A DNA stretch of 32,000 bases from Erysipelotrichaceae bacterium. GTDB taxonomy: Bacteria > Bacillota_I > Bacilli_A > Erysipelotrichales > Erysipelotrichaceae. Below, one piece after another: positions 11,106-30,623 of this stretch (position 1 is the first letter of the stretch; every line of letters begins with the position of its first letter). The DNA is taken from assembly GCA_963663995.1 (NCBI GenBank), contig OY760660.1, forward strand, positions 1,770,001-1,802,000, read 5' to 3'. Both the position numbers and the translations under genes were made by a program. A model generated the notes under the pieces. It was not told the DNA's origin, ran no database searches, and saw nothing but the letters and a program-made list of their open reading frames with translations.

Positions 11106-12696
11106 ATATATTCAAACTTTTGCGAGTTTTTTAATGATACTTTCACTCTATGCTCTTCTTTTAACACCAACTAAAAATACACTTCATATGTTTCAACAAA
11201 ATCGCTATGAGCTAAGAAGATATTTCCCATGGTTATTTGGTGAAATTAAATATCAAATTAAGCATAATAAACTTTGGATAGTCATTGTCGGAATCTATGG
11301 TGTTTTGGCTTTAATTGCACATTTTTCAAGCATCTTAGCACCAGCAATGGCCATTGGCGTTAATTTAGCCCTCGCCTTATATTTACATTATCAAGATCGT
11401 TCAAAAGTAAAAATTAAACCATTAGTTTTTACAGATCGTGTTAAAAGACAAAGTGTTGTGATGTTTATCCTTTCAAGTTTATTAATCATGTTGATTTGGT
11501 CGTATAGTTGGAATATTAGAATTATTTTTTCTCCACTATTGATGTTGAGTACATGGTTATTATTGGGTTTAACCGCAATCATCACAGCTCCATTTGAAGC
11601 GATGGTTAAACGTTCATACATTCAACAAGCAAGAAATATCCTAAAGGGACAAGTGAACCTTATTAAAATTGGGGTGACGGGATCTTATGGGAAAACATCA
11701 ACCAAAAACATCTTAAATGAAGTTTTATCGGAGAGCTTCTATACCCTAGCATCACCAGCTAGTTTTAATACGCCAATGGGTTTAACCATTACCATACGTG
11801 AACACTTAAAATCTGTTCATCAAGTATTTATTGCTGAAATGGGTGCAGATAAAGTGGGTGAGATTGAATTCTTAAGTAAATTTATTCAACCCAAAATTGG
11901 GATTATTACATCTATTGGTCCTCAACATCTCAACACCTTTAAAAACATTGAAAATATTATTAAAGAAAAAATGCGTCTAGCTGAAAATCTTCCAGAAGAT
12001 GGCTTAGCTGTTTTAAATATGGATAATGAATATATTCGAAACTACCAACTAAAAAATAATTGTCAGGTAATTAGCTATGCCATTGATCATGAAGCTGATT
12101 TAATGGCTAAAGACATTCAATATAGTCCAAATGGCTCTCAGTTTAATGTGTGTTATAAAGATCAAGTCGTGCCATTTAAGACAAGACTATTAGGAAAACA
12201 CAATATTGCGAACATTTTATCTGCGATATCAGTGGGTTTATATTTAGGTATTAACTTTGAACAACTTCAACATGCAGTAACTCAAGTGAACTATATAGAA
12301 CACCGTTTACAATTAAAAACGATTAATGGTTTTCAATATATAGACAATGCCTTTAATTCAAATCCTGAAGGTTCTAAAATGAGTTTAGATGTCTTAGAAT
12401 TAATGCCAGGGCATCGAACAATAATTACGCCTGGCATGATTGATTTAGGACATAAACAAGATGAATACAATAAAGCTTTTGGTCAATATATGTTAGGTAA
12501 AACAGATACCGTTTTACTGATTGGACAAACGCAAACAGCCGCCATCTTTGAAGGTTTAAAAGAAAGTGGTTTTAATATGGATAATGTCAAAGTCTTTGAT
12601 CGAGTTCGACAAGCTTTTGATTATATAGAAAGAAATGCATCTAGAACCGATATCACACTCTTAGAGAATGATTTGCCTGATGCCTTTAATCGCTAA
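11098..12696 (+). CDS. murF: MurF-like Mur ligase (UDP-MurNAc-tripeptide--D-Ala-D-Ala ligase family) with N-terminal multi-TM domain
   Basis: P-loop GVTGSYGKTSTKN, AEMGA, and central and C-terminal Mur-ligase domain patterns (HNIANILSA, DNAFNSNPEG). About 190 N-terminal residues are hydrophobic, with roughly 5 TM helices. Start moved to ATG 11098, 6 nt after SD aaaggagg. Confidence 0.75.
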   Translation: MDKYIQTFASFLMILSLYALLLTPTKNTLHMFQQNRYELRRYFPWLFGEIKYQIKHNKLWIVIVGIYGVLALIAHFSSILAPAMAIGVNLALALYLHYQDRSKVKIKPLVFTDRVKRQSVVMFILSSLLIMLIWSYSWNIRIIFSPLLMLSTWLLLGLTAIITAPFEAMVKRSYIQQARNILKGQVNLIKIGVTGSYGKTSTKNILNEVLSESFYTLASPASFNTPMGLTITIREHLKSVHQVFIAEMGADKVGEIEFLSKFIQPKIGIITSIGPQHLNTFKNIENIIKEKMRLAENLPEDGLAVLNMDNEYIRNYQLKNNCQVISYAIDHEADLMAKDIQYSPNGSQFNVCYKDQVVPFKTRLLGKHNIANILSAISVGLYLGINFEQLQHAVTQVNYIEHRLQLKTINGFQYIDNAFNSNPEGSKMSLDVLELMPGHRTIITPGMIDLGHKQDEYNKAFGQYMLGKTDTVLLIGQTQTAAIFEGLKESGFNMDNVKVFDRVRQAFDYIERNASRTDITLLENDLPDAFNR

Positions 12697-12707
12697 GGAG
12701 CACGCTT

Positions 12708-13307
12708 GTGGAATGGAATCAATTTGTTAGTAAAATACTTGCTTTTTCAAAAACGGGGATTAAGTATAGCCAAGACCCGTATGCATTAGAAAACTATAAA
12801 GAGTTATATGAACTTGCTTCACTTCAAATCTCTGAAGAAAGATTAATTGGTGAAACAACAACACTTTATCCTAAAGATGCTTATCCAACTCCAAATGTAT
12901 CGGTAAGAGTTATTATCTTTAATGAAAAGGGACAGTTACTTATGGTTCAAGAGGCTCAAGACCATAAATTCGCTCCTCCTGGGGGATGGTGTGATGTCTT
13001 TGAGTCACCTAAAGAAAATGCTTTAAAAGAAGTGAAACAAGAAACCGGTTTAGATGCACGTATTGATCGATTATTAGGTGTGTTTATGCGTGATAACTAT
13101 AAAGATAGACCAACCATGATTTCCGAGTATTGTATGTATTTTCTAGCGACTGCAACGGGTGGGAAACTTGAGCATAATCATGAACTAATTGGAATTGGTT
13201 ATTATGATTTAGATGATTTACCAATATTGTCAGGTAAAACAAGTGAATTTGAGCTACATACTGCATTAAGTGTTGCGTTGAATCATTCAGAAATCTATAT
13301 TGATTAA
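12708..13307 (+). CDS. NUDIX hydrolase with N-terminal Nudix_N-type helical domain
   Basis: Nudix box GGWCDVFESPKENALKEVKQETGL. GTG start 7 nt after SD aggag. Confidence 0.8.
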   Translation: MEWNQFVSKILAFSKTGIKYSQDPYALENYKELYELASLQISEERLIGETTTLYPKDAYPTPNVSVRVIIFNEKGQLLMVQEAQDHKFAPPGGWCDVFESPKENALKEVKQETGLDARIDRLLGVFMRDNYKDRPTMISEYCMYFLATATGGKLEHNHELIGIGYYDLDDLPILSGKTSEFELHTALSVALNHSEIYID

Positions 13308-13319
13308 GAGGAGTAAACT

Positions 13320-14492
13320 ATGAAATTAAATGTTGTCGTCCTATTTGGTGGGGTATCTGTTGAGCATGAAGTAAGTATTATTTCAGCTTTACAAGCTATG
13401 GCTGCCATTGATGAAAGTAAATATGAAGTTATACCAGTTTATCAATCTAAGCAATCTATTTTTTATTCAGGAGAGCTTTTAAAATCAATCGAGAACTTTA
13501 AAAATCTTGATGATCTATTAAAGAAAACACCACAAGTGTCTTTTGTGAAAGAAAAACAAAAACACTATTTAATTGAACTGAAGGGGATTAGAAATAAACG
13601 TATTCCTATAGATTTGGTTATCCCGGTTGTTCATGGTCGATTAGTTGAAGATGGTAGTATCCAAGGTTTCTTAGAAAGCATTGGTATACCCTATGCTGGT
13701 AGTGATGTCATGGCATCAGCGATTGGCCAAGATAAAGTATTTATGAAACTAGCTTTTGAGACAGCAAAAATACCAACAGTTAAATGGGTTTCCTTTACTC
13801 AAAGTGAATATTTGAAAAACAAAGAAAACTGTATTTCAATATCTGAGACTTTAAAATACCCTGTTATTTTAAAACCTGCTTCATTAGGTTCTTCAGTCGG
13901 AATTAGTTATGTGAAAGATCGTGAAACACTTGTAAAAGCACTTCAAACAGCTTTTAGTTTTGATGCAAAAGTGATTGTTGAAAAAGCAGTAGAAAACTTA
14001 AGAGAAATTAATTGTTCGATTCTAAGTGATGGTAAACATACACTAGCTTCAGCTTTAGAAGAAGTTTATATGAAAGATGCAATTTTATCTTATAGCGATA
14101 AATATTTAGGAAATTCTGGTAAAAGTAAAGGGATGGCAAGTACTAGTCGCGAATGTCCTGCTAAACTTGATGAAAAGCTTACAAAAGAAATTCAAGATCT
14201 TGCGATTGCATGTTTTAAATCACTAGGGTGCAATGGTGTTGCGCGAATGGATTTTTTAATGGACTCAAAAACAGGAAAAATCTATGCGAATGAAATCAAT
14301 ACGATTCCAGGATCATTGTCTTTCTATTTATGGGAAGCGAGTGGTAAATCATTTACGACTTTAATGGATACACTTATTCAACAAGCCATCCGTTCACACT
14401 CACAAAAAGAAAAACGAATCACCTCAATTGATACTAATTTACTCGCTAATTTTTCCAGCACTTCGAGTAAGGGAAAACACAGTAAACTTTAA
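13320..14492 (+). CDS. ddl: D-alanine--D-alanine ligase
   Basis: VLFGGVSVEHEVSI N-terminus, ATP-grasp core, SDKY in the omega-loop region, and ARMDFL...ANEINTIPG. Confidence 0.9.
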   Translation: MKLNVVVLFGGVSVEHEVSIISALQAMAAIDESKYEVIPVYQSKQSIFYSGELLKSIENFKNLDDLLKKTPQVSFVKEKQKHYLIELKGIRNKRIPIDLVIPVVHGRLVEDGSIQGFLESIGIPYAGSDVMASAIGQDKVFMKLAFETAKIPTVKWVSFTQSEYLKNKENCISISETLKYPVILKPASLGSSVGISYVKDRETLVKALQTAFSFDAKVIVEKAVENLREINCSILSDGKHTLASALEEVYMKDAILSYSDKYLGNSGKSKGMASTSRECPAKLDEKLTKEIQDLAIACFKSLGCNGVARMDFLMDSKTGKIYANEINTIPGSLSFYLWEASGKSFTTLMDTLIQQAIRSHSQKEKRITSIDTNLLANFSSTSSKGKHSKL

Positions 14493-15547: not shown

Positions 15548-15638
15548 GGGGAAGTACTCAAGTGGTTGAAGAGGTGCCCCTGCTAAGGGTATAGGTCGGG
15601 AAACCGGCGCGAGGGTTCAAATCCCTCCTTCCCCGCCA
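15548..15638 (+). tRNA. tRNA-Ser (anticodon GCU), CCA-encoded
   Basis: Folded by hand. Acceptor ggggaag/cttcccc, anticodon loop ctGCTaa, long variable arm, T-arm gaggg-ttcaaat-ccctc, 3' gcca. Confidence 0.9.
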
Positions 15639-15653: not shown

Positions 15654-15729
15654 GGTCCAGTGGTGTAGCGGTTAACATGCCTCCCTGTCACGGAGGAGAT
15701 CGCGGGTTCGATTCCCGTCTGGACCGCCA
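15654..15729 (+). tRNA. tRNA-Asp (anticodon GUC), CCA-encoded
   Basis: Acceptor ggtccag/ctggacc, anticodon stem cctcc/ggagg with loop ctGTCac, T-loop ttcgatt. Confidence 0.9.
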
Positions 15730-15732: not shown

Positions 15733-15806
15733 GCAGATGTAGTTCAATGGTAGAACGCGACCTTGCCAAGGTCGACACGGGGGTTCGATTCCCCTCATCC
15801 GCTCCA
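15733..15806 (+). tRNA. tRNA-Gly (anticodon GCC), CCA-encoded
   Basis: Anticodon stem cgacc/ggtcg with loop ttGCCaa, T-loop ttcgatt. Acceptor gcagatg/catccgc carries one A3:C70 mismatch. Confidence 0.85.
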
Positions 15807-15972
15807 TAACAACGCAAGTCCTTTATTTAAGGGCTTTTTAATGGTTTAGCAACGAGTTGGGAAAAAATGGGGAAAACATAATAGAATATATCGATAAATA
15901 TCTGAAAAATAATTAAGTAATAGGTTAAAACTTGATATCAAAATATCTGATTTACGTACTATTAATAACTAA
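15794..15972 (+). repeat. direct repeat copy A (tRNA-Gly 3' end plus ~165 bp downstream)
   Basis: ctcatccgctccataacaacgcaagtcctttattt...atatatcgataaatatc...cgtactattaataactaa aligns by eye with 22768-22948. The ends are near-identical and the middle ~40 bp is diverged. Confidence 0.85.
15816..15840 (+). terminator. rho-independent terminator of the tRNA cluster
   Basis: aagtcctt-tattt-aagggctt stem (one G.U pair) followed by tttt. The same hairpin recurs in the second repeat copy near 22791-22816. Confidence 0.6.
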
Positions 15973-16128
15973 TTAAAATGGAAAAAATGATAAAAATATG
16001 TTAACTATTTCATCGATAGTTAGTTCAATTGTTATAATTACCCTAGAAATTAGATTTGATTTTTAATTTCATATAATTATGTGAAAATTGATATATTTTT
16101 TTTAACAAGTATCCCTTATAATTAACCC

Positions 16129-17298
16129 ATGAAAAAAAATCTTAAGCTAACATTAATCAAAACGAAGAAATCGCATCTATTGTTTAGTATTTTCTTTATA
16201 ATATTCGTGTTGATGTTGATTCCATCACAAGGAATACAACCAAGATCACTTATCTTAAATCCTGCCTACCAATTTGTTGTTGATGATGAAATCTTATTTA
16301 CCTTTCAAAATGTAGAGGAAGTTCAAGAAGTCATTGATGAATATAAAATGAGTTATTTATCTTTAGTGGATGAAAATGCAACTATAATTTCTATGGAATT
16401 CTTACAAAAAATAGAAATTAGAGAAACCAAGATTGATGGAAATAGTTATGATAATTTAGATTTACTCAGAAGTTATTTAGCACAAACAACAACTGCTGCA
16501 GATATCGTCATCATTCAAGAAGGTGATAATGTTTGGAAAATTGCCGAAAACTATCAAGTCTCTATCGACAGCATTATTCTTCTTAACCCTTCACTTGATC
16601 CCGAACTAATTCATCCTGGAGATGAAATCTTAATTGAAGCTGCAGATCCTTTAATTGATGTAAAAATTGTTTTTGAAAACACCGTTGAAGAAACTATTCC
16701 TTATGATGTTGAAACGATTAAAGACAGCTCACTATATGCCGATGAGCGTGTTGTTATTGAAGAAGGTGTTGAAGGATTAAAGACTGTAACGTATAACATC
16801 ACTTTAATGAATAGCGTTGCTGAAGATACCCAAATTCTAAATGAAGTTATTCTGTCAGAAGCCAGTAAAAGGGTTGTAAAAGTTGGCACAAAAGCAACTG
16901 TAATGCGTAATACGGGTGGACGCTTTGGCGTAACTAACGGTAACTTCCAAAGCTATTTTGGATATCGCACGCATCCAATTACAGGTGTTAAAACCTTCCA
17001 TAACGGTATTGATATTTCAAACTCAAAAAACACAGCTATCTATGCTTATGCAGCAGGAACGGTTACGCAAGTGGGATGGGATGGACAATTAGGTAATCGC
17101 ATTATCATTGATCATGGAAATGGTTTAGTAACGCGCTATGCTCATCTTAATGCCATGTATGTATCCGTTGGTGACAGCGTCAGTGCTGGTGATAATATTG
17201 CCGGCATGGGTAAAACAGGTTATGTGACCGGAACAAATTTACATTTCGAAGTAATCAAAAATGGTGCTTTTCAAAACCCACTCAATTACTTAAATTAA
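16129..17298 (+). CDS. M23 family metallopeptidase with LysM and G5-like domains (cell-wall hydrolase)
   Basis: N-terminal signal anchor. LysM (VWKIAENYQVSIDSIILLNP...PGDEILI). G5-like segment (...VIEEGVEGLKTVTY...VVKVGTK). M23 motifs HNGIDI and TGTNLHFEV. Confidence 0.85.
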   Translation: MKKNLKLTLIKTKKSHLLFSIFFIIFVLMLIPSQGIQPRSLILNPAYQFVVDDEILFTFQNVEEVQEVIDEYKMSYLSLVDENATIISMEFLQKIEIRETKIDGNSYDNLDLLRSYLAQTTTAADIVIIQEGDNVWKIAENYQVSIDSIILLNPSLDPELIHPGDEILIEAADPLIDVKIVFENTVEETIPYDVETIKDSSLYADERVVIEEGVEGLKTVTYNITLMNSVAEDTQILNEVILSEASKRVVKVGTKATVMRNTGGRFGVTNGNFQSYFGYRTHPITGVKTFHNGIDISNSKNTAIYAYAAGTVTQVGWDGQLGNRIIIDHGNGLVTRYAHLNAMYVSVGDSVSAGDNIAGMGKTGYVTGTNLHFEVIKNGAFQNPLNYLN

Positions 17299-17330
17299 TT
17301 CAAAACCCCCAATAATTTGGTGGTTTTGAA
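17299..17330 (+). terminator. terminator-like hairpin after the M23 peptidase gene
   Basis: ttcaaaaccccc-aataattt-ggtggttttgaa forms a 12-bp stem with one mismatch. No T-tract follows. Confidence 0.45.
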
Positions 17331-17473
17331 CGATAAATTGACTAATAGAGAACAAACAGGATAGATGAATTAATTATAAACTTAGAAATAGTACGGATTA
17401 TTAAGAATATTCATGTTTCATTTTGACTTTATTATTAATTATTCAGTATTTCATAATTATTTTTTCCTAAATT

Positions 17474-17637
17474 GATAGAGGCTATATAATTGTGCAAAAT
17501 AGAAAGGCCATAGTGGTCTTTTATTATGTTAGTTACTACACTTCAAAAGGAAGAACTCTATGGCCCAAATCAATCTGAATTTAAATACTGAACAGATTCA
17601 AGATATCATTTCGAATAGACCGAATTATTATACTTGA
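17474..17637 (+). mobile_element. truncated left end of an IS256-family element (IRL plus first ~20 codons of the transposase)
   Basis: gatagaggctatataattgtgcaaaa...aaaggccata closely resembles the IS256 left inverted repeat as I recall it (GATAAAGTCCGTATAATTGTGTAAAAGTAAAAAGGCCATA). The following ATG (17560) encodes MAQINLNLNTEQIQDIIS, similar to the IS256 transposase N-terminus MTQVHFTLKSEEIQSIIE. The frame then stops after 25 codons. Confidence 0.6.
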
Positions 17638-17679
17638 AAAATCACTTAAAAAGATTTATTATATGAATAGATGTTCAAT
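17634..17679 (+). promoter_or_regulatory. candidate cadC-cadA promoter plus ArsR/CadC-type operator
   Basis: TTGAAA (17634-17639), 17 nt, TATTAT (17657-17662). This is followed directly by ATGAATAGATGTTCAAT (17663-17679), which contains the imperfect inverted repeat TGAA-N6-TTCA. Confidence 0.5.
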
Positions 17680-17700
17680 CGTTCATCTAAGGGGATTAAA

Positions 17701-18066
17701 ATGAAAAATTCAGAAACAGTATCTAAATGTGATTGTACGATTATTCATGAAGATGTTGTAAATAATGTTAAGAGCAAAATGCCAGAAGAAGAATCACTGA
17801 TTGATTTAGCTGAGTTGTTTAAAATTTTTGGTGATTCAACACGTGTGAGAATTTTATGGGCTCTAAATGAGTCAGAAATGTGTGTTTGTGATATTTCAGC
17901 TTTATTAAATATGACCCAATCAGCTATTTCTCATCAATTAAGATTGTTAAAACAATCGAATCTTGTGAAGAATAGGAAAGATGGAAAAGTTGTTTATTAT
18001 TCAATCAAAGACAAGCATGTAAAAGATATATTTAGTCAAGGATTCTTGCATATTAGAGAAAAATAA
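17701..18066 (+). CDS. cadC: ArsR/SmtB-family metalloregulator, CadC-like
   Basis: HTH region DSTRVRILWAL...CVCDISALLNMTQSAISHQLRLLK. N-terminal CDC (C10, C12) together with CVC (C61, C63) mimics the CadC four-Cys Cd/Pb/Zn site. Start set at ATG 17701 after SD aagggga; the ORF-track start 17671 is rejected. Confidence 0.85.
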   Translation: MKNSETVSKCDCTIIHEDVVNNVKSKMPEEESLIDLAELFKIFGDSTRVRILWALNESEMCVCDISALLNMTQSAISHQLRLLKQSNLVKNRKDGKVVYYSIKDKHVKDIFSQGFLHIREK

Positions 18067-18079
18067 TGGAGAAAATAAA

Positions 18080-20464
18080 ATGAAAAATAGTAAAGTACTT
18101 CTTGAAGGATTAGATTGCGTGAATTGCGCCAGTAAAATAGAAATATATGTTCAAAAAATTTCAGGACTATCGAATGTTAGTGTTGATTTCGTGAATAGAA
18201 AACTTTCATTTGATTATGATGTGGATGTAAATCTAGTTAGTACAATGGAAAATATTAAAAGATATATTAAATCAATTGAACCTCAAATTAATGTTGTGGA
18301 AATGAAAAGTAATGATGTAATTAGACAAGAAGTTAAACTTGAAGGACTATCATGTGCTAATTGTGCGATCAAAATAGAGAAGAAAATCACGCAGATTGAA
18401 GGTGTAAAATATGCGTCTGTTAATTTTGCGAATCAAAATATAATTGTTGAAATTGACAAAAATATAAATATACATCAATTGAATGAGAAGCTGTTTAGGA
18501 CTTCAAAAACAATTGAGCCAGATATTCGAATGAAATTTCCAAATAACAAAGAGAATACTTTATTAGCGGAAGATGTTAAAAATGATGATTTTGAAAGTGA
18601 TGAAGAAAATGATTTTTCATTAAATAAACAAATATTTAAATTGATTTTTGGTGGAGGATTATTTGCAATAGGATTGATTTTTAAGTTTGAATCAAATATT
18701 GAATTAGCTATATTTCTAATAAGTTATATTATTATTGGTGGCGATATCGTTTTAAAGGCATTAAAAGGTATTCGAAGTGGGCAAGTCTTTAGTGAAAATT
18801 TTTTGATGAGTATTGCAACAATTGGAGCATTCTTCATCGGTGAATATCCAGAAGGTGTTGCAGTTATGTTATTCTACTTGGTTGGTGAATTATTTCAAGA
18901 TATAGCGGTTGATAATTCAAGAAGATCAATAAGAAAGATGATGGATATACGACCTGATTACGCTAACATTAGAATAAACAATGAAATAGTTAAAGTTAAG
19001 CCAGAAAGCGTTAAAATTGGAGATGTTATCATTGTAAATCCTGGTGAAAAAGTACCGCTGGATGGGGTTGTTATTGAAGGCTCATCAATGGTTGATACTG
19101 CTGCATTAACAGGTGAATCGGTACCAAGAGAATTGTTTGTTGATGATCAAGCTATAAGTGGTTTTATAAATCTCAATGGACTTATATTAATCAAAGTAAC
19201 TAAATCTTTTGAAGATTCAACAGTGTCGAAAATACTTGAATTGGTTGAAAATGCGAGCAGTAGAAAAGCGCCAACCGAGAAGTTTATATCAAAGTTTGCA
19301 GCTGTGTATACTCCTATTGTTGTTTTTCTAGCATTAGCATTAGCAATTCTTCCACCATTATTAATACCAAATCAAAGTTTCAGTGAATGGATTTATAGAG
19401 CATTAGTATTTTTAGTTATTTCTTGTCCTTGTGCATTAGTTATATCGATACCACTCGGTTTCTTTGGGGGTATTGGAGGAGCCTCAAGACATGGAATACT
19501 TATTAAAGGTAGTAATTATCTTGAAGCATTAAATAATATTGAGATGGTTATTTTTGATAAAACAGGCACTTTAACCAAAGGCATATTTACTGTTACAAAT
19601 ATTAATTCGGAAGAAGGATTTAACACAGAGAATGTATTAGAACTTGCGGCATATGCGGAAAATCACTCTAATCATCCAATAGCTAAAGCTATTCTGAATA
19701 AATATTCTAAGACAATAGATTTAGATAGAATTAGTGACTATAAAGAAATTTCAGGGTATGGAATAAATTTAAAAATTGATAATATAAATGTTTTTGTTGG
19801 GAATTCGAAATTAATGATAAAAGAGAATATTCCTTTCGAAGAAATTAGTGCGAATGGAAGTATCGTATATGTAGCTAGTGATTCAAAATATATTGGCTAT
19901 ATCGTTGTATCAGATGAAGTCAAAGCAGATTCTAAACAGACAATTGCAGATTTAAAGAAATTAGGGATTATGAGAACCATAATGCTTACTGGCGATAGAA
20001 AAGTAGTTGGCGAAGAAATTGGTAATTATCTTGGCATGGATGAGGTTTATTCTGAGTTGTTGCCGACGGACAAAATTACTAAATTCGAAGAAATCGAAAA
20101 ACAGAAAACAACAAAGGGCAATATTATCTTTGTAGGAGATGGGATTAATGATGCACCAGTACTAGCTCGAGCAAACATTGGTATTGCAATGGGTGGACTT
20201 GGATCTGATGCAGCAATAGAGGCGGCAGATGTTGTAATAATGACAGACGAAACATCTAAAATTATTACAGCGATTAGAGTTGCTAAGAAAACAAGAAAAA
20301 TTGTATTTCAGAATATTGCATTAGCTATGATTGTAAAAGGTATATTTTTAGTATTAGGTTCGTTTGGACTAGCTACCATGTGGGAAGCGGTATTTGCTGA
20401 TACAGGTGTTGCGTTGTTAGCTGTATTCAATGCTTTAAGAGTTATGAATACGCGTGATTTGTAA
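18080..20464 (+). CDS. cadA: Cd/Zn/Pb-type P1B ATPase (CPC motif) with two N-terminal HMA domains
   Basis: Two HMA domains (GLDCVNCASKIE, GLSCANCAIKIE). TM CPC motif (VISCPCALVISIPL), DKTGTLT, HP, GDGINDAP. Lies directly downstream of cadC. Confidence 0.9.
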   Translation: MKNSKVLLEGLDCVNCASKIEIYVQKISGLSNVSVDFVNRKLSFDYDVDVNLVSTMENIKRYIKSIEPQINVVEMKSNDVIRQEVKLEGLSCANCAIKIEKKITQIEGVKYASVNFANQNIIVEIDKNINIHQLNEKLFRTSKTIEPDIRMKFPNNKENTLLAEDVKNDDFESDEENDFSLNKQIFKLIFGGGLFAIGLIFKFESNIELAIFLISYIIIGGDIVLKALKGIRSGQVFSENFLMSIATIGAFFIGEYPEGVAVMLFYLVGELFQDIAVDNSRRSIRKMMDIRPDYANIRINNEIVKVKPESVKIGDVIIVNPGEKVPLDGVVIEGSSMVDTAALTGESVPRELFVDDQAISGFINLNGLILIKVTKSFEDSTVSKILELVENASSRKAPTEKFISKFAAVYTPIVVFLALALAILPPLLIPNQSFSEWIYRALVFLVISCPCALVISIPLGFFGGIGGASRHGILIKGSNYLEALNNIEMVIFDKTGTLTKGIFTVTNINSEEGFNTENVLELAAYAENHSNHPIAKAILNKYSKTIDLDRISDYKEISGYGINLKIDNINVFVGNSKLMIKENIPFEEISANGSIVYVASDSKYIGYIVVSDEVKADSKQTIADLKKLGIMRTIMLTGDRKVVGEEIGNYLGMDEVYSELLPTDKITKFEEIEKQKTTKGNIIFVGDGINDAPVLARANIGIAMGGLGSDAAIEAADVVIMTDETSKIITAIRVAKKTRKIVFQNIALAMIVKGIFLVLGSFGLATMWEAVFADTGVALLAVFNALRVMNTRDL

Positions 20465-20656
20465 GTCATACCAATCTATTGAGTAATAATAGATAGAGTG
20501 TATTAAGAGTCTAGTTGAGTTTAAACATCTGTTTCCTTTTAGTTGAATGATTAAATCTTAAATGCACATACAATGGATTAATTTTCAAAAATGCTTAATT
20601 TGATTATAAATACACAAAATTTTGATATAGTTCATGAATGTGTGCGTATCCTTATA

Positions 20657-20698
20657 AAAACGGAATTATAAATCTAATTGATTTTATAATTCCGTTTT
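20657..20698. terminator. strong bidirectional terminator between cadA and the convergent thioredoxin-like gene
   Basis: aaaacggaattataaa-tctaattgat-tttataattccgtttt forms a 16-bp perfect stem with A/T runs on both sides. Confidence 0.75.
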
Positions 20699-20726
20699 AT
20701 TTACTTAATAATCCAAATAAATGTTC

Positions 20727-21155
20727 TTATTCAAAAATACCAGAATTATTAATTCTTTTAATAAATTTGTCTTCAGTATCTGCTTGTTGAAGGGAAAACT
20801 GATCAAGAATTACTCCGTCTTTTATTACAAATAGTATTGGAAATGAATAAGGAAAAGTTTCATTTTGTTCTAGAAAACTTGTTATAGTTGTCGTTAGAAG
20901 CTCTTGATCTTTTTCTGGGACTTTATCAAATTCTAAATAAAATACATCAAAGTTCTCCTTTTCAATAGAACTCTTAACTACAGAGCGGAATATTTTGCAC
21001 GCTGAACAATACGATAATCCCATATATAGTATAAAGGTATCACTATTTTCCAATTTGTCGTTAACTGTTTTCGTATCTACTTCGATAAATCCAGATGACT
21101 TACAACCTGCAAAAAATAATAAAATACTAAGCATTATAACTATCAATTTTTTCAT
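20727..21155 (-). CDS. thioredoxin-fold lipoprotein (CxxC)
   Basis: Lipobox FFAGC (Cys18). YMGLSYCSACKIF active-site-like CSAC. Size and pattern match exported thioredoxin-like or Bta-like lipoproteins. SD agagga. Confidence 0.7.
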   Translation of the reverse strand: MKKLIVIMLSILLFFAGCKSSGFIEVDTKTVNDKLENSDTFILYMGLSYCSACKIFRSVVKSSIEKENFDVFYLEFDKVPEKDQELLTTTITSFLEQNETFPYSFPILFVIKDGVILDQFSLQQADTEDKFIKRINNSGIFE

Positions 21156-21182
21156 ATTTTCCTCTTTTCTTACTTATATTTA

Positions 21183-21238
21183 TTGACTATAAGTATCATG
21201 TAGAATACTATATTAGTATACATGAATATTTGTTCAAT
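21183..21238. promoter_or_regulatory. divergent promoter region with 28-bp imperfect palindrome and second copy of the cadC-type operator motif
   Basis: Plus strand: TTGACT (21183-21188), 17 nt, TACTAT (21206-21211). Minus strand: TTGAAC (complement of 21232-21237), 16 nt, TAATAT (complement of 21210-21215). Palindrome catgtagaatactatattagtatacatg at 21197-21224. ATGAATATTTGTTCAAT at 21222-21238. Confidence 0.45.
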
Positions 21239-21297
21239 TAAACATATATTATCAAAAATTTAGATTGAAAATAAATAATTAGAAAAGGAAATACATA

Positions 21298-22485
21298 ATG
21301 CGCTTCAAATTCACGATTATTGTTAGTCTATTATTAATTCTATTTGGGTTTACCAATGTGTCAGCCAGTGATAAACAAGTCAACTTATATTACTTCCATG
21401 CGGAAGGATGTCCAACATGTGCACTTGAAACGACATATCTCGAAGAACTTACTTCGAAGGATACGAATCTCGTACTACATAAGTATGAAATCGCATTTGA
21501 TAAAGAAAATCAAAAGCTAAGTAAAGATGTAGGTGAACTCTTAAACCAACCGATTAACTCAACTCCAACCTTAATTATTGGTAGAGAAGTAATAGTAGGA
21601 TTTAAAGAAGGTTCAACTGAAAAGACCATTGAAGAAGCAATCACTTTCGTAAGAGATAACAACGTTCGTGATGTTGTAGGTGAAATGTTAGGCATTGTAG
21701 AACCTGGACAAGGCGTAGATATTATTAATGAAGGATCTAAAGTCAATTTACCATTTTTTGGAGAAGTTGACGCTAAGAGTGTATCATTACCGATATTAGC
21801 AATTGTATTAGGTGGATTAGATGGCTTTAATCCATGTGCAATGTGGGTATTACTCCTCTTAATCAGTATGTTATTCCATCTTGAAGAACAATGGAAAAAA
21901 TGGTTCTTAGGTGGATTATTCCTCCTAACAAGCGCGATTATGTATTTCTTCTTTATGTTGAGTTGGTTAAATATAACGATTCTATTCGGCACATTAGTTT
22001 ATATCCGATGGTTAATTGGAGGTCTGAGTATTGGTGGGGGAATATTTAATATTCGTCGTTATACCCAAATGGAACCAGGATGTGAAATCGTTGATGAATC
22101 GAAACGATTAAAGATTAGAGATCGTTTGAGAGCCATCTATTCACAACCGGTATTCGCGCTTGCGGCTGTTGGGATTGTCGTGCTTGCGGTTTCTGTAAAC
22201 TTAGTTGAATTAATTTGTTCCGCTGGATTACCGGTATTATTTACACAAATCTTAACGTTAAATGATCTTAGTAGTTTTGAATATATGATGTATTTATTCC
22301 TTTATTTAGCGATGTTTATGCTGGACGATATTATCGTGTTTGTGATAGCTATGAAAACTGCAGAACTTACCGGCATCTCTACGAAATACGCACGCAATGC
22401 ACATCTTATTGGGGGGATACTAATGATTCTACTTGGAATCTTTATGATTCTAAAACCCGCTTGGTTGTTGTTAAACTTTCGATAG
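21298..22485 (+). CDS. exported thioredoxin/glutaredoxin-fold domain (CPTC) fused to a DsbD/CcdA-like 6-TM thiol-disulfide transporter core
   Basis: Signal peptide (..TNVSA/SD). YYFHAEGCPTCA plus a cis-Pro-like STPTLIIG. Six predicted TM helices follow, with Cys in TM1 (GFNPCAMW) and TM4 (ELICSAGLP), as in DsbD-superfamily cores. Confidence 0.55.
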   Translation: MRFKFTIIVSLLLILFGFTNVSASDKQVNLYYFHAEGCPTCALETTYLEELTSKDTNLVLHKYEIAFDKENQKLSKDVGELLNQPINSTPTLIIGREVIVGFKEGSTEKTIEEAITFVRDNNVRDVVGEMLGIVEPGQGVDIINEGSKVNLPFFGEVDAKSVSLPILAIVLGGLDGFNPCAMWVLLLLISMLFHLEEQWKKWFLGGLFLLTSAIMYFFFMLSWLNITILFGTLVYIRWLIGGLSIGGGIFNIRRYTQMEPGCEIVDESKRLKIRDRLRAIYSQPVFALAAVGIVVLAVSVNLVELICSAGLPVLFTQILTLNDLSSFEYMMYLFLYLAMFMLDDIIVFVIAMKTAELTGISTKYARNAHLIGGILMILLGIFMILKPAWLLLNFR

Positions 22486-22767
22486 AACATTATAAATCAT
22501 TAATTTAAGTTTTGTAAGTTGCGATGAGTATTATCTACTTCAATGATATTGGTTAAGTATTACTAATTATTTTACCAAGTGATAAACGTAGTACGCATCA
22601 CTGAGTTGAACTACTTTCAAAATACTTACTGGGTCACAGCTGGGTCGCGGATGTCAGTTAATAGTGGTTAATAGTTGTTTTACTTGGGATATTTTCTAAG
22701 ATTTTATGGGATTTTAGTTAGTTTTACTGCGTTATATGAAGTTTCTGAGTTTAATTCTTAAACTCCA

Positions 22768-22948
22768 CTCATCCGCTCCATAACAACGCAAGTCCTTTAT
22801 TTTAGGGCTTTTTTAATGGTTGAACAACGAGCGGGGAAAAATTGGGAAAAAACAAAGGAGAATATATCGATAAATATCAGAAAATTATTTCAGTTAACGG
22901 TAGAAATTTAATAATATAGCAAATGATTTTCGTACTATTAATAACTAA
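22768..22948 (+). repeat. direct repeat copy B (orphan tRNA-Gly 3' end plus ~165 bp)
   Basis: ctcatccgctccataacaacgcaagtcctttatttt...atatatcgataaatatc...cgtactattaataactaa, in the same orientation as 15794-15972. The rest of the tRNA body is absent. Confidence 0.85.
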
Positions 22949-23077
22949 GAAAACCACTAAGAAAAAATATAATTGATGAGAATGAGTTTGGTTCTTTATA
23001 ATAATAATTCTTCTTACTTAAGCGTCATAACTTGTTGTATTTACTTTGACGAGTAACAAACTATGTATAATCCTCAT

Positions 23078-23338
23078 TTACTGTCGCCAACGATAATATT
23101 CGTCATCATTATCTAGACTCATTTCTTCTACTTTTTTCTTAGTATGGATCAAGAAAAACTCAAATTGATAAAGGATCAAAAAATTTTCAACACTCATATG
23201 AAATCTAGTTTGTTCACTATATACCCAGATTTTTTCATCGATAAGAACAAAAAATGATAATGGGGTGGAGATTGTTTTTAAAACTTGACCTTGTTTTAAA
23301 TATTCTATTGAATCATTTATGTTAAATTTGTTTTGCAT
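23078..23338 (-). CDS. hypothetical protein, 86 aa
   Basis: Isolated ORF with no recognisable motif. Coding status is uncertain. Confidence 0.35.
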   Translation of the reverse strand: MQNKFNINDSIEYLKQGQVLKTISTPLSFFVLIDEKIWVYSEQTRFHMSVENFLILYQFEFFLIHTKKKVEEMSLDNDDEYYRWRQ

Positions 23339-23541
23339 ATATTGGTTATATCATAAACTCAGATTATGGACTTGATATAAAAACTGGCATATACTTGAAA
23401 TATACAATTAGTAAAGAGTTAGTTTTATATTTTTAAATTCTTCATCATTTTCATGTAATAATTTGCCAAATTATGTATTAGCGATTAATCATTAAAAGTA
23501 TTAGAACTCACATACTATTAATTTACCTAGGAGTAATCAAT

Positions 23542-25719
23542 ATGAATAAAGATAATAATAACAAATCTAGCAAAATGGATCACAGCGAAATGGATCATAG
23601 TAAGATGGATCACAGCGAAATGGACCATAGTCAAATGGATCATAGCGAAATGGACCACAGTCAAATGGATCATAGTAAGATGGATCACAGTCAAATGGAT
23701 CATAGTAAGATGGATCACAGCGAAATGGACCATAGTCAAATGGATCACGGAACCGAAGGACATGAAGGTCATCATGATCATCACATGATGATGGTGAAAG
23801 ATTTCAAAAGACGATTCTTTGTATCGCTTTTCCTTACTGCTCCGATATTACTTTTGTCGCCCATGATTCAGATGTTTATGGGTGTGGAATGGCGATTTAC
23901 TGGAGATAGTTACTTGCTTTTCATTTTATCAACGATACTTTTTATCTATGGTGGTAAACCATTCTTAACTGGAGCTGTTGATGAATTGAAGAAGAAATCA
24001 CCAGCCATGATGACATTGATTGCTTTGGCGATTAGTGTTGCTTATATTTATAGTTCACTTACAGTTTTTGTATTAAAAGGGAGCGACTTCTTTTGGGAAT
24101 TAGCGACTCTAATTACAATTATGTTGTTGGGACATTGGATTGAAATGAAGTCTATTATGGGCGCATCGAAAGCATTAGAAGAACTTGTTAAGTTAATGCC
24201 AGTTATTGCTCATATGATTCATGATAATGGGGATGTTATGGATCATCCTGTTGATTATTTTAAAGAAGGATTCAATGTACTCGTAAAGCCGGGCGAAAAA
24301 ATACCGCTTGATGGTATTATTTATGAAGGGATTTCATCTGTTAATGAATCCATGATGACAGGCGAATCTGTACCCGTTGAAAAAAATCCTGGTGATGAAA
24401 TTATTGGTGGGTCAATCAATGGGGAAGGTGTTCTTAAATTTACAGTTTCAAGAGTAGGTGAAGCAACATTTTTATCTCAAGTTATTAAATTAGTACGAGA
24501 AGCGCAGGCTTCTCGATCCAACACACAACGCCTTGCTGATATCGCAGCCAAGTGGCTGTTCTATATTGCTGTTATTAGTGGAATAACCACATTTACAGTA
24601 TGGATTTTATTAGGCCAAGATTTAAGCTTTGCCATCGAACGCGCGGTTACAGTTGTTATTATTTCCTGTCCGCATGCTTTAGGACTAGCAACACCATTAG
24701 TAACAGCTGTTTCTACGAGCATTGGTGCTAAAAAAGGATTATTGATTAGAAATCGATCAGCATTTGAAGAGGCGCGAAAGCTAAATGCCATTGTTTTTGA
24801 TAAAACTGGAACCTTAACTGAAGGTCAATTTGGGATTACTGATATTGTCTCGACTGGATTAAATGAAAATGAGTTATTATCACTTATTTATTCTGTAGAA
24901 TCAAACTCAGAACATCCTATTGCAAAGGGTTTAGTGAAAGAGGGTAAAAAGCGCGATCTTAAGCTTCAAGATGTAAAGGATTATCAAGCGTTACCTGGAA
25001 AAGGACTTGTTGCAAACGTAGAAGGTCGAGAGATTAGAATTGTTAGCCCAGGTTACATGATCTTGGAAAAAATTGCTTTTGATACGATCAACTATGAAAA
25101 ACTTGCTGCTCAAGGGAAGACAGTTATCTTTGTGCTTGAAGAGAGTAAATTAATTGGGTATGTAGCACTTTCTGATATTATAAGAGACTCGGCTATAGAA
25201 ACAGTAGCTACTTTAAAAACAATGCATATTGAATCCATCATGCTTACTGGAGATAATACAAAAGTTGCGAACTATGTTGGTCAGAAGATTGGTATTGATC
25301 AGATTATTGCTGAAGTACTCCCTCAAGATAAGGCTATGAAGATTAAAGAATTAATTAAATCGGGCAAAAAAGTTGCCATGACAGGTGATGGAATCAACGA
25401 TGCTCCTTCCTTAGCGTTAGCACATCTTGGTATTGCGATTGGTGCTGGTACAGATGTCGCCATTGAAACAGCTGATGTTATTTTAGTTAAAAGCAATCCG
25501 CTAGATGTAGTCAATATTCTTAAACTATCCAAAGCGACATATCGCAAAATGATTCAAAACCTTATTTGGGCAACTGGTTACAATGTCATTGCGCTTCCTT
25601 TGGCCGCTGGTGTCTTGATTAATCAAGGTATCGTAATAAGTCCCGCTATGGGTGCTGTATTTATGTCATTGAGTACAATTATCGTCTCCATAAATGCTCG
25701 ATTACTAAAAATTGATTAG
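23542..25719 (+). CDS. copB: CopB-type copper P1B ATPase (CPH motif) with His-rich repetitive N-terminus
   Basis: N-terminal (MDHSx)x11 followed by HEGHHDHH. TM CPH motif (IISCPHALGLATP), DKTGTLT, SEHP, GDGINDAP. Resembles Enterococcus hirae CopB architecture as I recall it. SD aggag 8 nt upstream. Confidence 0.9.
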   Translation: MNKDNNNKSSKMDHSEMDHSKMDHSEMDHSQMDHSEMDHSQMDHSKMDHSQMDHSKMDHSEMDHSQMDHGTEGHEGHHDHHMMMVKDFKRRFFVSLFLTAPILLLSPMIQMFMGVEWRFTGDSYLLFILSTILFIYGGKPFLTGAVDELKKKSPAMMTLIALAISVAYIYSSLTVFVLKGSDFFWELATLITIMLLGHWIEMKSIMGASKALEELVKLMPVIAHMIHDNGDVMDHPVDYFKEGFNVLVKPGEKIPLDGIIYEGISSVNESMMTGESVPVEKNPGDEIIGGSINGEGVLKFTVSRVGEATFLSQVIKLVREAQASRSNTQRLADIAAKWLFYIAVISGITTFTVWILLGQDLSFAIERAVTVVIISCPHALGLATPLVTAVSTSIGAKKGLLIRNRSAFEEARKLNAIVFDKTGTLTEGQFGITDIVSTGLNENELLSLIYSVESNSEHPIAKGLVKEGKKRDLKLQDVKDYQALPGKGLVANVEGREIRIVSPGYMILEKIAFDTINYEKLAAQGKTVIFVLEESKLIGYVALSDIIRDSAIETVATLKTMHIESIMLTGDNTKVANYVGQKIGIDQIIAEVLPQDKAMKIKELIKSGKKVAMTGDGINDAPSLALAHLGIAIGAGTDVAIETADVILVKSNPLDVVNILKLSKATYRKMIQNLIWATGYNVIALPLAAGVLINQGIVISPAMGAVFMSLSTIIVSINARLLKID
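23575..23751 (+). repeat. 15-bp in-frame tandem repeat, about 11.8 copies (atggatca[ct]ag[ct]nan), encoding MDHS[EKQ]
   Basis: Read directly from the sequence: atggatcacagcgaa atggatcatagtaag atggatcacagcgaa atggaccatagtcaa and so on. Differences between units are mostly synonymous or at the fifth codon. Confidence 0.95.
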
Positions 25720-25742
25720 ATCATAAAAATTAAAAGTAACTG

Positions 25743-25774
25743 AAGGAAATCCGAAGCCATGGATTTCCTTTTAA
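25743..25774 (+). terminator. rho-independent terminator of copB
   Basis: aaggaaatcc-gaagccat-ggatttcctt forms a 10-bp stem followed by tt, 24 nt after the stop codon. Confidence 0.7.
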
Positions 25775-26169
25775 TTTGTTAAAAAAAATTGGAATTGACA
25801 AATTAAAGTAGTTATTTCTGCATGGTCACTATGAAAACGGAGGTTAGAAGAAGATTGATGTTTTTTTGTCGATTGAATTATTAAAATAATGTTTTTGGTA
25901 GAACTAAATGTGCAAGCACTATTAGAAGATGTAGGCAAAAATTCACAGAAAACTGAAATAGAAATACAACAAATCGATAACTCTTTAAAAAACCATATAG
26001 AGTTTTTTTTGGTTATAACCATTAATTTTCAATAATAAAAGCATGATATTAATCATTAAACATATAATACATAGCAGTAACAATATGTTTTAACTACCTG
26101 TTTTAACTAGGTTAGTATTTAAACTTAACGCAATAAAAATAGAAGAATAGTTAATTTCGTTAAAAAATG

Positions 26170-26200
26170 AGTGATATTCAGTCTTGGATATCACTTTTTG
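26170..26200. terminator. orphan bidirectional terminator hairpin
   Basis: agtgatat-tcagtcttgg-atatcact forms an 8-bp stem, preceded by aaaaaa and followed by ttttg. On the minus strand it lies downstream of the IS30 transposase gene. Confidence 0.5.
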
Positions 26201-26297
26201 TTTGAAAAGATTATAATAAAGGTACTTATTAAGGTCTTTTGACCGCACTAAAAGGAACTTGAAATTGTGGTTATTTCAAGTTAAACGCAATGTGGGC

Positions 26298-27534
26298 CGT
26301 TAAGATCTTAAAGGCAGCTGAAGATTATTTCTTTAGTTTAATCTTTGAAGGTTGTACTTCAAAGACTTGAATGAATTCACTAGGTTGAAAGTGAAATCGT
26401 TCAGTGAATGCCTGAAAAGGCGTTTTCCCAGCCAAGCTTTTACGCTTCTGGGAGTTGATGTGGGAGAATAGCTGATTGATCTCGTCTTGTGAAACAAAAT
26501 CAAAGCTTTCTCCTTTTTTAATGACATAACGAATAAGTGAATGATTACGTTCACACCCACCTTTCTGAAATGAAGAATAGGGATCACAGTAGAAGATGCG
26601 TGTCAGTATTTCTCCTTCATCAGTCATCTCTAATTGAGGTAGTGATTGAAACTCTCCACCATTATCTGAGAGTATACAATCGAAGAATAAATGGTTTGAT
26701 GTGTAAAGCGTTTGAATCAAATCAGCCAAGGCATTATTGACTGAGGTCGCTGATTTATAGACAATGTATCCCCATTGAAATCTCGAGAGTGGCTCGAAAC
26801 AAGTCAGTAAACACTTCTTATCCGTTTTCTTACCAATGACGGTATCGACTTGTAGAGTGACTCTTGAGCTTGAATGATTATAATCCCTAAAGTCCTGATA
26901 GGTACGATTCACTAGAAACTCAACATTAATGCGGTGTCTAGAGACTCTAGTCGATGTTTTAGAGTTAGGAAAGCGTACTGTTCGTGGTAAATCAATGTTT
27001 CGACACTGAAGATATTGTTTATCAATATAGCGTCTAAGTGTTGATTCAGAAACACTAATTCTTTCATCACTTTGAAGGATATGAAAGAGTGATTGATGAT
27101 TCATGACTCTATCACTCACTAAGTCATCCAGTTCTTTGAGTTTCTTCGTTGTGATTTGTGGATGACTTCTTGAATCCTTCATTAAATAGAACGCTTTCTT
27201 ATCCGCTTCATAAGCATCGTATTCAAAGATATCTTTACTGCAGCGTGATTTATGTGTGCATACATTACAGACATAAGGAAATCTTTGAAGTTTAGGACAA
27301 GGTTCTGGTTGTCCCTTCATAAATCTTCGCTGTTTAGAACCTCGATTAATCACGTTTCTTTTTAACTCTCTATACACAGTTGATTCACTACAATTCAAAT
27401 CTAAAGCTAATGATTTAAGACTGGTATCACGATTATGTTCAATCTGATAATGAATGATAACTCGATCTCGTGTGGTTAAATGTTTTCCCATAAGAAAACA
27501 ACTCCTTTCTCTTCAAAACCTCAAGATCTTAACG
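26298..27534 (-). mobile_element. IS30-family insertion sequence (about 1.24 kb by the inner inverted repeats)
   Basis: Left end cgttaagatcttaaaggcagctgaag versus the complement of the right end cgttaagatcttgaggttttgaag. The first 12 nt are identical and about 20 of 26-28 match overall. They enclose a 388-aa DDE transposase gene. No 2-3 bp target duplication is seen at these ends. A wider 14-bp direct repeat exists (see findings). Confidence 0.65.
26325..27491 (-). CDS. IS30-family DDE transposase
   Basis: N-terminal HTH (TRDRVIIHY...STVYRELKRN). Catalytic D (LQVDTVIGK), D (ILSDNGGEF) and E (GGCERNHSLIRY) with IS30-like spacing. Confidence 0.9.
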   Translation of the reverse strand: MGKHLTTRDRVIIHYQIEHNRDTSLKSLALDLNCSESTVYRELKRNVINRGSKQRRFMKGQPEPCPKLQRFPYVCNVCTHKSRCSKDIFEYDAYEADKKAFYLMKDSRSHPQITTKKLKELDDLVSDRVMNHQSLFHILQSDERISVSESTLRRYIDKQYLQCRNIDLPRTVRFPNSKTSTRVSRHRINVEFLVNRTYQDFRDYNHSSSRVTLQVDTVIGKKTDKKCLLTCFEPLSRFQWGYIVYKSATSVNNALADLIQTLYTSNHLFFDCILSDNGGEFQSLPQLEMTDEGEILTRIFYCDPYSSFQKGGCERNHSLIRYVIKKGESFDFVSQDEINQLFSHINSQKRKSLAGKTPFQAFTERFHFQPSEFIQVFEVQPSKIKLKK

Positions 27535-27617
27535 TATTTTTATTATAATTTTCTTTTTCTAGGTAAACGCAATAAGTTATTGCGTTTAAAATGACGTGTT
27601 ACAACCTGTTTTAACTA

Positions 27618-27646
27618 TTGACGCTAATTGAATCAAAATGTATTAT
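27618..27646 (+). promoter_or_regulatory. candidate promoter of the T-box-controlled operon
   Basis: TTGACG (27618-27623), 17 nt, TATTAT (27641-27646) with TG directly upstream. Lies about 15 nt before the start of the T-box leader. Confidence 0.55.
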
Positions 27647-27662
27647 AGATTTAATAAATAAA

Positions 27663-27907
27663 TGCGTTGAAAAGAAATAGTAGTAATATTGAATCCATAA
27701 GAGAGAGATCCAAAAGCTGAAAGTGATCTTTGGAGAATGTAGTATGAATGCGTCTTAGAGCAGCAGTTTCGAAAATGTAGAGACTGACAGGTACGCCTGT
27801 TAAAGCGTTAGGATATGTTTGTATCCGATAGAGATGAACTAATAATATTAGTTTAACAAGAGTGGAACCGCGAAAGACTATCGCCTCTTAGAGGAGAGTC
27901 TTTTTTT
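27663..27907 (+). ncRNA. T-box leader (tRNA-sensing riboswitch), probably Cys-specific, with intrinsic terminator
   Basis: T-box sequence AACAAGAGTGGAACCGCG (27855-27872; consensus AAnnnGGGTGGTACCGCG). Stem III aactaat-aat-attagtt just upstream. AGAGA box at 27700-27704. K-turn-like GCGTTGAAAAG ... TCTTAGAGCA. GAA-UGC-G (27746-27752) sits in the specifier position. Terminator agactatcgcct...aggagagtct plus t7 (27875-27907). Confidence 0.8.
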
Positions 27908-27924
27908 GTTAATGCGGAGGAACC

Positions 27925-30616: not shown

Positions 30617-30623
30617 AGGAAAT

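Follow-up and report, generated by a model that had tools for sequence, protein, structure and literature searches.

The window analysed here, a stretch of 32,000 nucleotides (nt) from contig OY760660.1 of an Erysipelotrichaceae bacterium, contains a tRNA-Gly(GCC) gene at whose 3' end two related integrative elements were probably accreted in tandem, to decay afterwards into units similar to cis-mobilizable elements (CIMEs). The block of about 7 kb that follows the tRNA (unit 1) is most likely the first of two worn-out integrative islands devoid of an integrase and located at one tRNA site, the second of which (unit 2) starts at 22954. In particular, the end of the tRNA and the arm that follows it are found again, in the same orientation, at the distal junction of unit 1. 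The features that define this structure are listed below with their coordinates in the window.

15548-15638, forward strand: tRNA-Ser(GCT), detected by ARAGORN and Rfam, in a conserved chromosomal cluster upstream of the putative integration site
15654-15729, forward strand: tRNA-Asp(GTC), detected by ARAGORN and Rfam, in the same conserved cluster as tRNA-Ser(GCT)
15733-15806, forward strand: tRNA-Gly(GCC), chimeric, detected by ARAGORN and Rfam, with a 3' end carrying C70
15790-15977, forward strand: left repeat copy, made of the 17-nt tRNA-end core, the terminator hairpin and the rest of the ~170-nt arm; read as a putative attL (B-O-P'1)
15790-15806, forward strand: left core TCCCCTCATCCGCTCCA, direct repeat of the tRNA 3' end
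about 15816-15840, forward strand: left intrinsic-terminator hairpin, inside the left repeat copy
22764-22953, forward strand: right repeat copy, made of core, terminator and arm; read as a putative chimeric internal site (P1-O-P'2)
22764-22780, forward strand: right core TCCACTCATCCGCTCCA, the tRNA 3' end recurring at the distal junction
22790-22810, forward strand: right terminator, inside the right repeat copy

The alignment of the two repeat regions gives identity at 156 of 190 columns (82.1%) with two 1-nt indels, from which the offset between the copies drifts from 6974 to 6976, and its local score of 238 against 27.7 +/- 4.7 for shuffles (z about 45) confirms the direct repeat reported in a preliminary description of this DNA, with a start 4 nt further left than was given there (15790, not 15794). 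Both copies open with TCC[C/A]CTCATCCGCTCCA and their homology begins sharply at position 60 of tRNA-Gly(GCC); in fact, the 150 nt upstream (z 1.1) and the 150 nt downstream (z 0.4) of the copies are unrelated, so that the boundary at this tRNA position is a sharp one. The first ~50 nt, spanning the tRNA end and the intrinsic-terminator hairpin, are 96% identical, and perfect or near-perfect blocks are present inside the repeat (GAATATATCGATAAATATC and CGTACTATTAATAACTAA), the conserved arm blocks GAATATATCGATAAATATC and CGTACTATTAATAAC being candidate arm-type binding sites. The stretch 15908-15950 is just 55-65% identical; a divergent centre of about 40 bp with small indels had been described, and its divergence holds, but it is due to substitutions and not to indels. 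Beyond these two, no further copy of the tRNA 3' end occurs in the 32-kb window, nor does a third copy of the core, unit 2 included. A uniformly decayed old segmental duplication is ruled out by the jump in identity from background to 96% at tRNA position 60.

The chimeric character of the tRNA gene is evident at position 70. The gene ends with ...CATCCGCTCCA, so that A3 and C70 face each other as a mismatch in the acceptor stem, and the right repeat copy likewise has C70; both copies depart at this position from the tRNA-Gly(GCC) of relatives, which has an A3-U70 pair (...CAYCTGCTCCA) in nine of the nine cases read. In two related loci, L081 and L083, tRNA-Gly is identical to that of the window except for T70, ends with ...CATCTGCTCCA and is followed by TGTATGTCAATTTGAAGAG, unlike the window, where the gene is followed by TAACAACGCAAG... 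(after CCA: TAACAACGCAAGTCC...). The Rfam tRNA score is 65.1 bits in the window versus 70.2 bits in L081 and L083, a drop of 5 bits. The two copies also differ from one another at tRNA position 63, which is C on the left, as the T-stem needs, and A on the right. Had one element integrated into a U70 tRNA, C70 would be left at one junction only; for C70 to stand at both, two or more events are required, or else a native C70, which no relative shows. If both events share the same region, the crossover would fall in the 6 nt (CTCATC) that separate the two polymorphic positions, 63 and 70, a length typical of the overlap regions of tyrosine recombinases. The element-borne tRNA end (C70) would mismatch the 5' half of the host gene (A3), producing the mismatched acceptor stem as a side effect; the A3·C70 pair would represent a cost of integration at a tRNA site, in what may be the sole tRNA-Gly(GCC), a kind of cost that, to our knowledge, has seldom been documented.

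The tRNA 3' end and its flank are foreign to this locus. Similarity comparisons of arms and of the spacer that precedes the right copy took in 101 fetched loci (related loci and metagenome contigs), cited here by number. On the basis of deoD/PNP, the nearest species-level relatives are Erysipelotrichaceae, 'Bacillota' and Izemoplasma-type metagenome-assembled genomes (MAGs) at no more than 76%, and closer relatives are found in metagenome assemblies (99, 95, 90 and 84% protein identity). These closer relatives are syntenic upstream, with the order cdaA-ybbR-glmM-two-component system-hydrolase-Mur ligase-Nudix-ddl-deoD-small open reading frame (ORF)-tRNA Ser/Asp/Gly, and its last part, from deoD to the three tRNAs, is kept in L001, L002, L003, L019, L022, L027, L081, L083, L084 and L086. 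L081 and L083, with 81-85% nucleotide identity to the window and 95% PNP identity each, belong to other species than that of the window; L082, a single near-conspecific contig (95% nucleotide identity), ends in tRNA-Asp, and L082, L085, L088, L089 and L090 all stop before tRNA-Gly, L081 about 140 nt after it. All the relatives at 70-95% nucleotide identity whose contigs reach the end of tRNA-Gly align to the window only until 15806-15809; the insertion at the tRNA 3' end, with the similarity break at that point, is evident against L081, L083, L084 and L086, and its distal junction carries the direct repeat of the tRNA end.

The site downstream of tRNA-Gly is variable within the genus, and L086, L084 and L083 all differ. 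In L086 tRNA-Gly(GCC) is followed, with no insert, by tRNA-Gly(CCC), CIRCE-hsp20, a ybaK-like gene and BcrAD; L084 has the same arrangement plus a 7.2-kb sugar-utilisation insert before hsp20, which is not flanked by a core repeat, and in L083 a DUF8412 gene and then hsp20 follow the tRNA. None of these native downstream genes (CIRCE-hsp20, ybaK-like, BcrAD and so on) is present anywhere in the window, including the 16 kb downstream of the tRNA, so at least 16 kb after the tRNA are not the ancestral flank. Arm-like sequence after tRNA-Gly was found in none of the relatives read, which disfavours the capture of native flank that the preliminary description had offered as an alternative, and no integrase adjoins tRNA-Gly in six relatives.

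Two further observations concern this site in the relatives. In L084 (11410-18586) the 7.2-kb block separates tRNA-Gly(CCC) from CIRCE-hsp20 and codes for an alpha-amylase-family enzyme, ABC permeases and a GH32 enzyme; it is missing in L086 (10978-11029). As no tRNA-end repeat flanks it, the locus serves as a hotspot for a different kind of insertion, too. L081 (11284-11422) and L083 (1529-1650) have the first 19 nt after tRNA-Gly in common (TGTATGTCAATTTGAAGAG) and then diverge totally, suggesting that insertions may also occur 19 nt past the tRNA in these loci.

A comparable arrangement occurs at the same tRNA position in L002, a Bacillota MAG with 71% PNP identity. It contains three perfect copies of its own tRNA-Gly 17-mer TCCCCTCACCTGCTCCA (11209-13600), the first of which is the tRNA end, while the second and the third lie 1.3 and 2.2 kb downstream, where no tRNA is detected by ARAGORN; the identity of the copies to the tRNA starts at the same tRNA position as that of the window repeat. 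A conserved arm of ~110 nt with a tandem 11-mer TGACTATACAA precedes copies 2 and 3, and the two mini-units of 1.3 and 0.84 kb hold one gene each, one unknown and one for a DMP19-like (DNA-mimic family) protein, with no integrase in either. This layout is the architecture expected of tandem att-flanked units devoid of an integrase, and the boundary at the same tRNA position would support accretion in the window as well. The L002 arms and the non-coding spacer of the window (22603-22763) are similar at chance level only; L002 is accordingly an architectural parallel and not a member of the same family.

In the mechanism that we propose, the 3' end of tRNA-Gly(GCC) would have served as attachment site, most likely for a tyrosine recombinase, and at least two related elements would have integrated successively, each bringing its version of the ~17 nt that end the tRNA, together with a replacement terminator and a P' arm of ~170 nt. 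The left copy would correspond to tRNA::core-P'1 (B-O-P'1) and the right copy to the internal junction P1-core-P'2 (P1-O-P'2), the repeat of ~190 bp being made of the shared core and of two homologous P' arms, 82% identical. The units would then have lost their recombination genes, or would never have carried them in this stretch; no recombination gene occurs in the 16 kb of both units within the window, which makes them CIME-like, and, as far as the window shows, their movement would require an integrase supplied in trans. Unit 1 would later have been remodelled by a peptidase gene that is chromosomal in a congener, by a putative IS256 end and by a horizontally acquired cadCA/thioredoxin-like module. 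An integration footprint at the 3' end of tRNA-Gly and the tandem accretion of elements each contributing a conserved arm had both been put forward in the preliminary description; the former is supported by the homology with relatives, which ends exactly there, and by C70 in both copies, and the latter is the best-supported reading in view of the homology break, of C70 found twice and of the boundary position shared with L002.

Several observations weigh against tandem accretion. Among the ORFs scanned in the 32-kb window there is no match to tyrosine or serine recombinase families, and no obvious recombinase remnant was seen by eye in six-frame fragments of the intergenic regions. Homologues of the arms or of the spacer are absent from the 101 fetched loci, from JGI metagenome contigs and IMG/VR (searched with exact and gapped DNA patterns), and from plasmids and phages, which means that the arms have never been seen beside an integrase. 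The comparison covered other species, and no empty or single-unit site was found in the same species. The spacer, candidate P arm of unit 1, is not similar to the L002 arms above chance, and the 8-mer that it shares with the arms (TTAATAGT) is not significant alone in AT-rich DNA; it is only a lead towards an arm-type binding site, several such 8-mers being expected by chance according to our estimate. The peptidase gene of unit 1, chromosomal in a congener, implies a rearrangement inside the unit, and GC, GC3 and codon usage mark no segment as foreign, the island genes being within the spread of core genes.

This last result is also compatible with one island only, formed by the integration of a circular DNA, with a tRNA-end fragment and a homeologous flank of ~170 bp, into the native flank through homologous (Campbell-type) recombination or an integrase, with duplication of the flank as a result; everything to the right of 22953 (copB, IS30 and the sulfur operon) would then be native, and composition does not mark unit 2 as foreign. 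Long direct repeats are expected from a single crossover with a circular molecule, the identity peak (96%) is in the first 50 nt, where a crossover is favoured, and the methyltransferase of the sulfur operon of unit 2 belongs to a 90% cluster with proteins of Erysipelotrichaceae MAGs, so the operon may be native to the lineage. However, none of the relatives read has a native flank related to the arm, and their downstream genes are missing from the window; moreover, with a native U70 one crossover cannot yield C70 twice, and the circular DNA would itself have to carry a tRNA fragment cut at position 60, an attP-like site that would come from an earlier site-specific recombination. A single island is, on the whole, unlikely. 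Slightly less likely again is an origin that involves no mobile element, in which the right copy would be the 3' stump, with its flank, of a second tRNA-Gly of the CCC type (G3-C70) whose 5' part was destroyed by insertions, and the left copy would have received a CCC-type end and flank by recombination or gene conversion. C70 in both copies would be explained without an integrase, and L084 and L086 (84% PNP identity) do carry a tRNA-Gly(CCC), 62 nt after tRNA-Gly(GCC), whose 3' end ...CACCCGCTCCA has C70; the two tRNA-Gly genes (GCC and CCC types) invoked for the gene conversion are 94% identical, and L003 has two tRNA-Gly genes 1.2 kb apart, each followed by similar terminators of ~30 nt. 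Nevertheless, two separate CCC-type ends would be required, each with a homologous 170-nt flank. What flanks tRNA-Gly(CCC) in L084 and L086 does not resemble the arm, and the locus lacks a tRNA-Gly(CCC) in the closest relatives, L081 and L083; in addition, an arbitrary deletion would hardly be expected to end exactly at the tRNA position where the L002 repeats start.

The sequence of ~190 bp could also be a generic intergenic repeat containing a terminator, similar to repetitive extragenic palindromes (REP) or to miniature inverted-repeat transposable elements (MITE), placed by chance after the tRNA and 7 kb further on. The first ~45 nt past the tRNA end do include a terminator hairpin, but 17 nt of the tRNA itself are in both copies, only two copies exist in 32 kb, none is present in the 101 related loci, and there is no exact match in JGI metagenomes or IMG/VR, which makes this origin very improbable.

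The structure proposed for the window is a known kind of genome scar and not a new system: decayed islands that stand in tandem at a tRNA and carry metal-resistance genes are well known, and this case adds one in a poorly studied lineage. Classical tRNA-linked islands and prophages, such as those with P4-like integrases, insert in the 3' part of a tRNA gene, whose end is regenerated from the DNA of the element and repeated at the far junction. The window likewise has a tRNA 3' end that would come from the element and is repeated at the far junction; unlike the classical islands, it has no integrase gene adjoining the tRNA, nor one within the element in the window, its regenerated tRNA end is imperfect (A3·C70), and its repeat runs far beyond the tRNA. 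CIMEs and tandem accretion at tRNA 3' ends with chimeric internal att sites have been described (PMC5704250); examples are the CIMEs of Streptococcus thermophilus related to ICESt1/ICESt3 and the tRNA-Lys composite of S. agalactiae (PMC5704250, citing Pavlovic 2004 and Bellanger 2011). As in CIMEs and in the accretion of islands derived from integrative and conjugative elements (ICEs) or from integrative and mobilizable elements (IMEs), att-like direct repeats bound the units at the 3' end of the target gene; the region 15807-22763 keeps attL- and attR-like sites and contains no recombinase or conjugation genes, and the window has two units in tandem without integration and transfer genes, with a chimeric internal site and adaptive cargo. 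Unlike the CIMEs described, these units have no known functional ICE or IME counterpart whose att sites resemble theirs, the arms are unusually well preserved over ~170 nt, and the host belongs to an uncultured-type Erysipelotrichaceae-like lineage, in which mobilisation is putative.

Composite islands of the staphylococcal cassette chromosome (SCC) offer another likeness, as PsiSCCcop/ars, located beside SCCmec, is an example of pseudo-SCC units without recombinase (bioRxiv 10.1101/336396). Both systems have tandem units at one site, marked by direct repeats and in some cases devoid of recombinase, with copper, arsenic or cadmium resistance as cargo and a mosaic content shaped by insertion sequences (IS). 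In contrast, SCC enters the 3' end of rlmH by means of Ccr serine recombinases and short integration-site sequences, while the target in the window is the 3' end of tRNA-Gly, the repeat is of 190 bp and no recombinase is known, ccr included, so that SCC is an analogy only. An integron-like cassette array is also a different structure, given that no intI-like gene is present and that the repeats carry the tRNA end and are not attC-type imperfect palindromes.

A few features are mildly unusual: the arms are long and conserved in patches, the chimeric tRNA is mismatched, and arrays without integrase recur in a distant relative at the same position of the tRNA. The 3' end of tRNA-Gly(GCC) might even be a standing platform for gene capture in the Erysipelotrichaceae-like clade, where armed units without integrase are stacked and exchanged by an integrase encoded elsewhere; this idea, quite improbable at present, would, if true, amount to an integron-like logic on a tRNA att site, with units of at least 7 kb in the window and of about 1 kb in L002. 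The findings leave current concepts unchanged; they point to a route of acquisition by which cadmium/zinc and copper efflux genes are stacked at one tRNA site in an uncultured-type Bacillota lineage with a small genome (about 1.95 Mb), and the unusually well preserved 170-nt arms are a test case for what selection maintains in an att site once the integrase is lost.

The content of unit 1, between the two repeat copies, is mosaic and comprises the following features.

16046-17327, forward strand: M23/G5/LysM peptidase gene module (coding sequence 16129-17298; Pfam), with its own promoter-like site and terminator
about 17478-17622, forward strand: putative left end of an IS256-family element, with a terminal repeat-like sequence TATAATTGTGCAAAA and the first ~21 codons MAQINLNLNTEQIQDIISNRPN; confirmed by no tool
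17623-22602, forward strand: mobile 5-kb metal-resistance (cad) module, with sharp ends against L092-L101
17671-18066, forward strand: cadC, ArsR-type, family match
18080-20464, forward strand: cadA, CadA-type P1B ATPase, family match
20727-21155, reverse strand: PedC-like CxxC lipoprotein, weak thioredoxin-like/PedC-like match
21298-22485, forward strand: CxxC membrane protein of 395 amino acids (aa), weak thioredoxin-like/PedC-like match
22534-22602, forward strand: partial copy of the boundary repeat R, at the end of the cad module
22603-22763, forward strand: non-coding spacer, candidate P arm of unit 1 (putative function)

The M23 module is 88.6% identical at the nucleotide level to a segment of the congener contig L091 (5812-7094), where the gene has two mgtE genes on one side, flavodoxin/ABC-transporter genes on the other and no tRNA in its vicinity. 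The homology with L091 extends only about 83 nt upstream and 29 nt downstream of the gene, a pattern that would suit a gene moving as a module. The segment at about 17478-17622, which resembles an IS256 left end, abuts the cad module, whose left part it cuts off; NCBIfam, tblastn and blastn gave no IS256 match for it. The cad module is 95-96% identical to at least ten contigs (L092-L101), all with flanks different from those of the window and two of them with an IS1595 transposase upstream, and the 90% clusters of CadA and CadC (129 and 56 members, respectively) include proteins annotated from Acholeplasma sp. MAGs; such identity in differing contexts, together with the wide clusters, indicates that the block was recently mobile in its own right. 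As regards the preliminary description, domain and family matches agree with the M23/LysM peptidase and cadC-cadA that it had placed in the enclosed DNA, and the absence of a recombinase gene noted there extends to the scanned ORFs of the whole window; of its two thioredoxin-fold genes the CxxC motifs are present, but the fold matches are weak, its IS256 end fragment is unverified, and the enclosed DNA is a mosaic and not a coherent island, with an M23 gene found in a non-tRNA context in a congener and a cad module that is an independently mobile block of 5 kb.

In several metagenome contigs a repeat of ~130 bp, R, bounds the cad module and a neighbouring unit (DUF2599 and a 73-aa ORF); its copies are at 872-980, 5940-6075 and 7198-7325 in L092 and occur also in L093-L096. 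In R, CAAGTGATAA is invariant; a palindrome of 13 nt (CACCAATTTGGTG) and a terminator are also present, and the left halves differ among copies while the right halves are conserved, as in the recombination sites of cassette arrays. R matches nothing in Rfam and does not occur in IMG/VR. In the gene-capture idea considered above, the R repeats that bound the cad module in L092-L096 might be the site of a second layer of cassette exchange. The spacer that follows the partial R copy of the window holds a tandem GTTAATAGT x2 (22657-22676), and the 8-mer is present, inverted, in a conserved block of both arms; its similarity to the flanks of R is not above chance, and no significant similarity to any fetched locus was detected. 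Island and junction gave no match against plasmids and phages in near and distant BLAST searches.

Unit 2 lies to the right of the second copy and runs off the window; copB, IS30 and the sulfur operon are present there as had been described, and the extension of the unit beyond the window is in agreement with the same account. Its features are the following, with the strand where recorded.

22954-32000: second unit, running off the window
23078-23338, reverse strand: 86-aa ORF
23542-25719: copB, His-rich
26325-27491, reverse strand: IS30-family transposase (103.9 bits against a cut-off of 80)
27658-27891: T-box leader (116.9 bits)
27925-31103: operon downstream of the T-box leader, with a methyltransferase, a Cys/Met pyridoxal phosphate (PLP) enzyme, a PALP enzyme and luxS
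31145-31342: 65-aa ORF, matching the C-terminus of a copper ATPase in its own C-terminal part
after the 65-aa ORF: SHOCT protein

The sole transposase-type gene noted in the unit is that of the IS30 DDE transposase. The N-terminus of CopB is encoded by twelve tandem 15-nt units (23538-23777), which give a His-rich repeat (M/S)DHS(E/K/Q). The 65-aa ORF, in turn, combines a His-rich N-terminal stretch with the C-terminal ~36 residues of a copper P-type ATPase, and its 3' 110 nt are 71% identical to the 3' end of copB (25609-25718); it looks like an internally deleted second copB-like gene, and together with copB it brackets IS30 and the sulfur operon. In the conserved upstream region, the cdaA-like ORF (3960-5627) has a long imperfect repeat region rich in Ala, Glu and Lys (4914-5247) with a periodicity of 18-24 nt, which is unusual for CdaA, and the annotated homologues of L081 and L089 are of similar length (541 and 558 residues).

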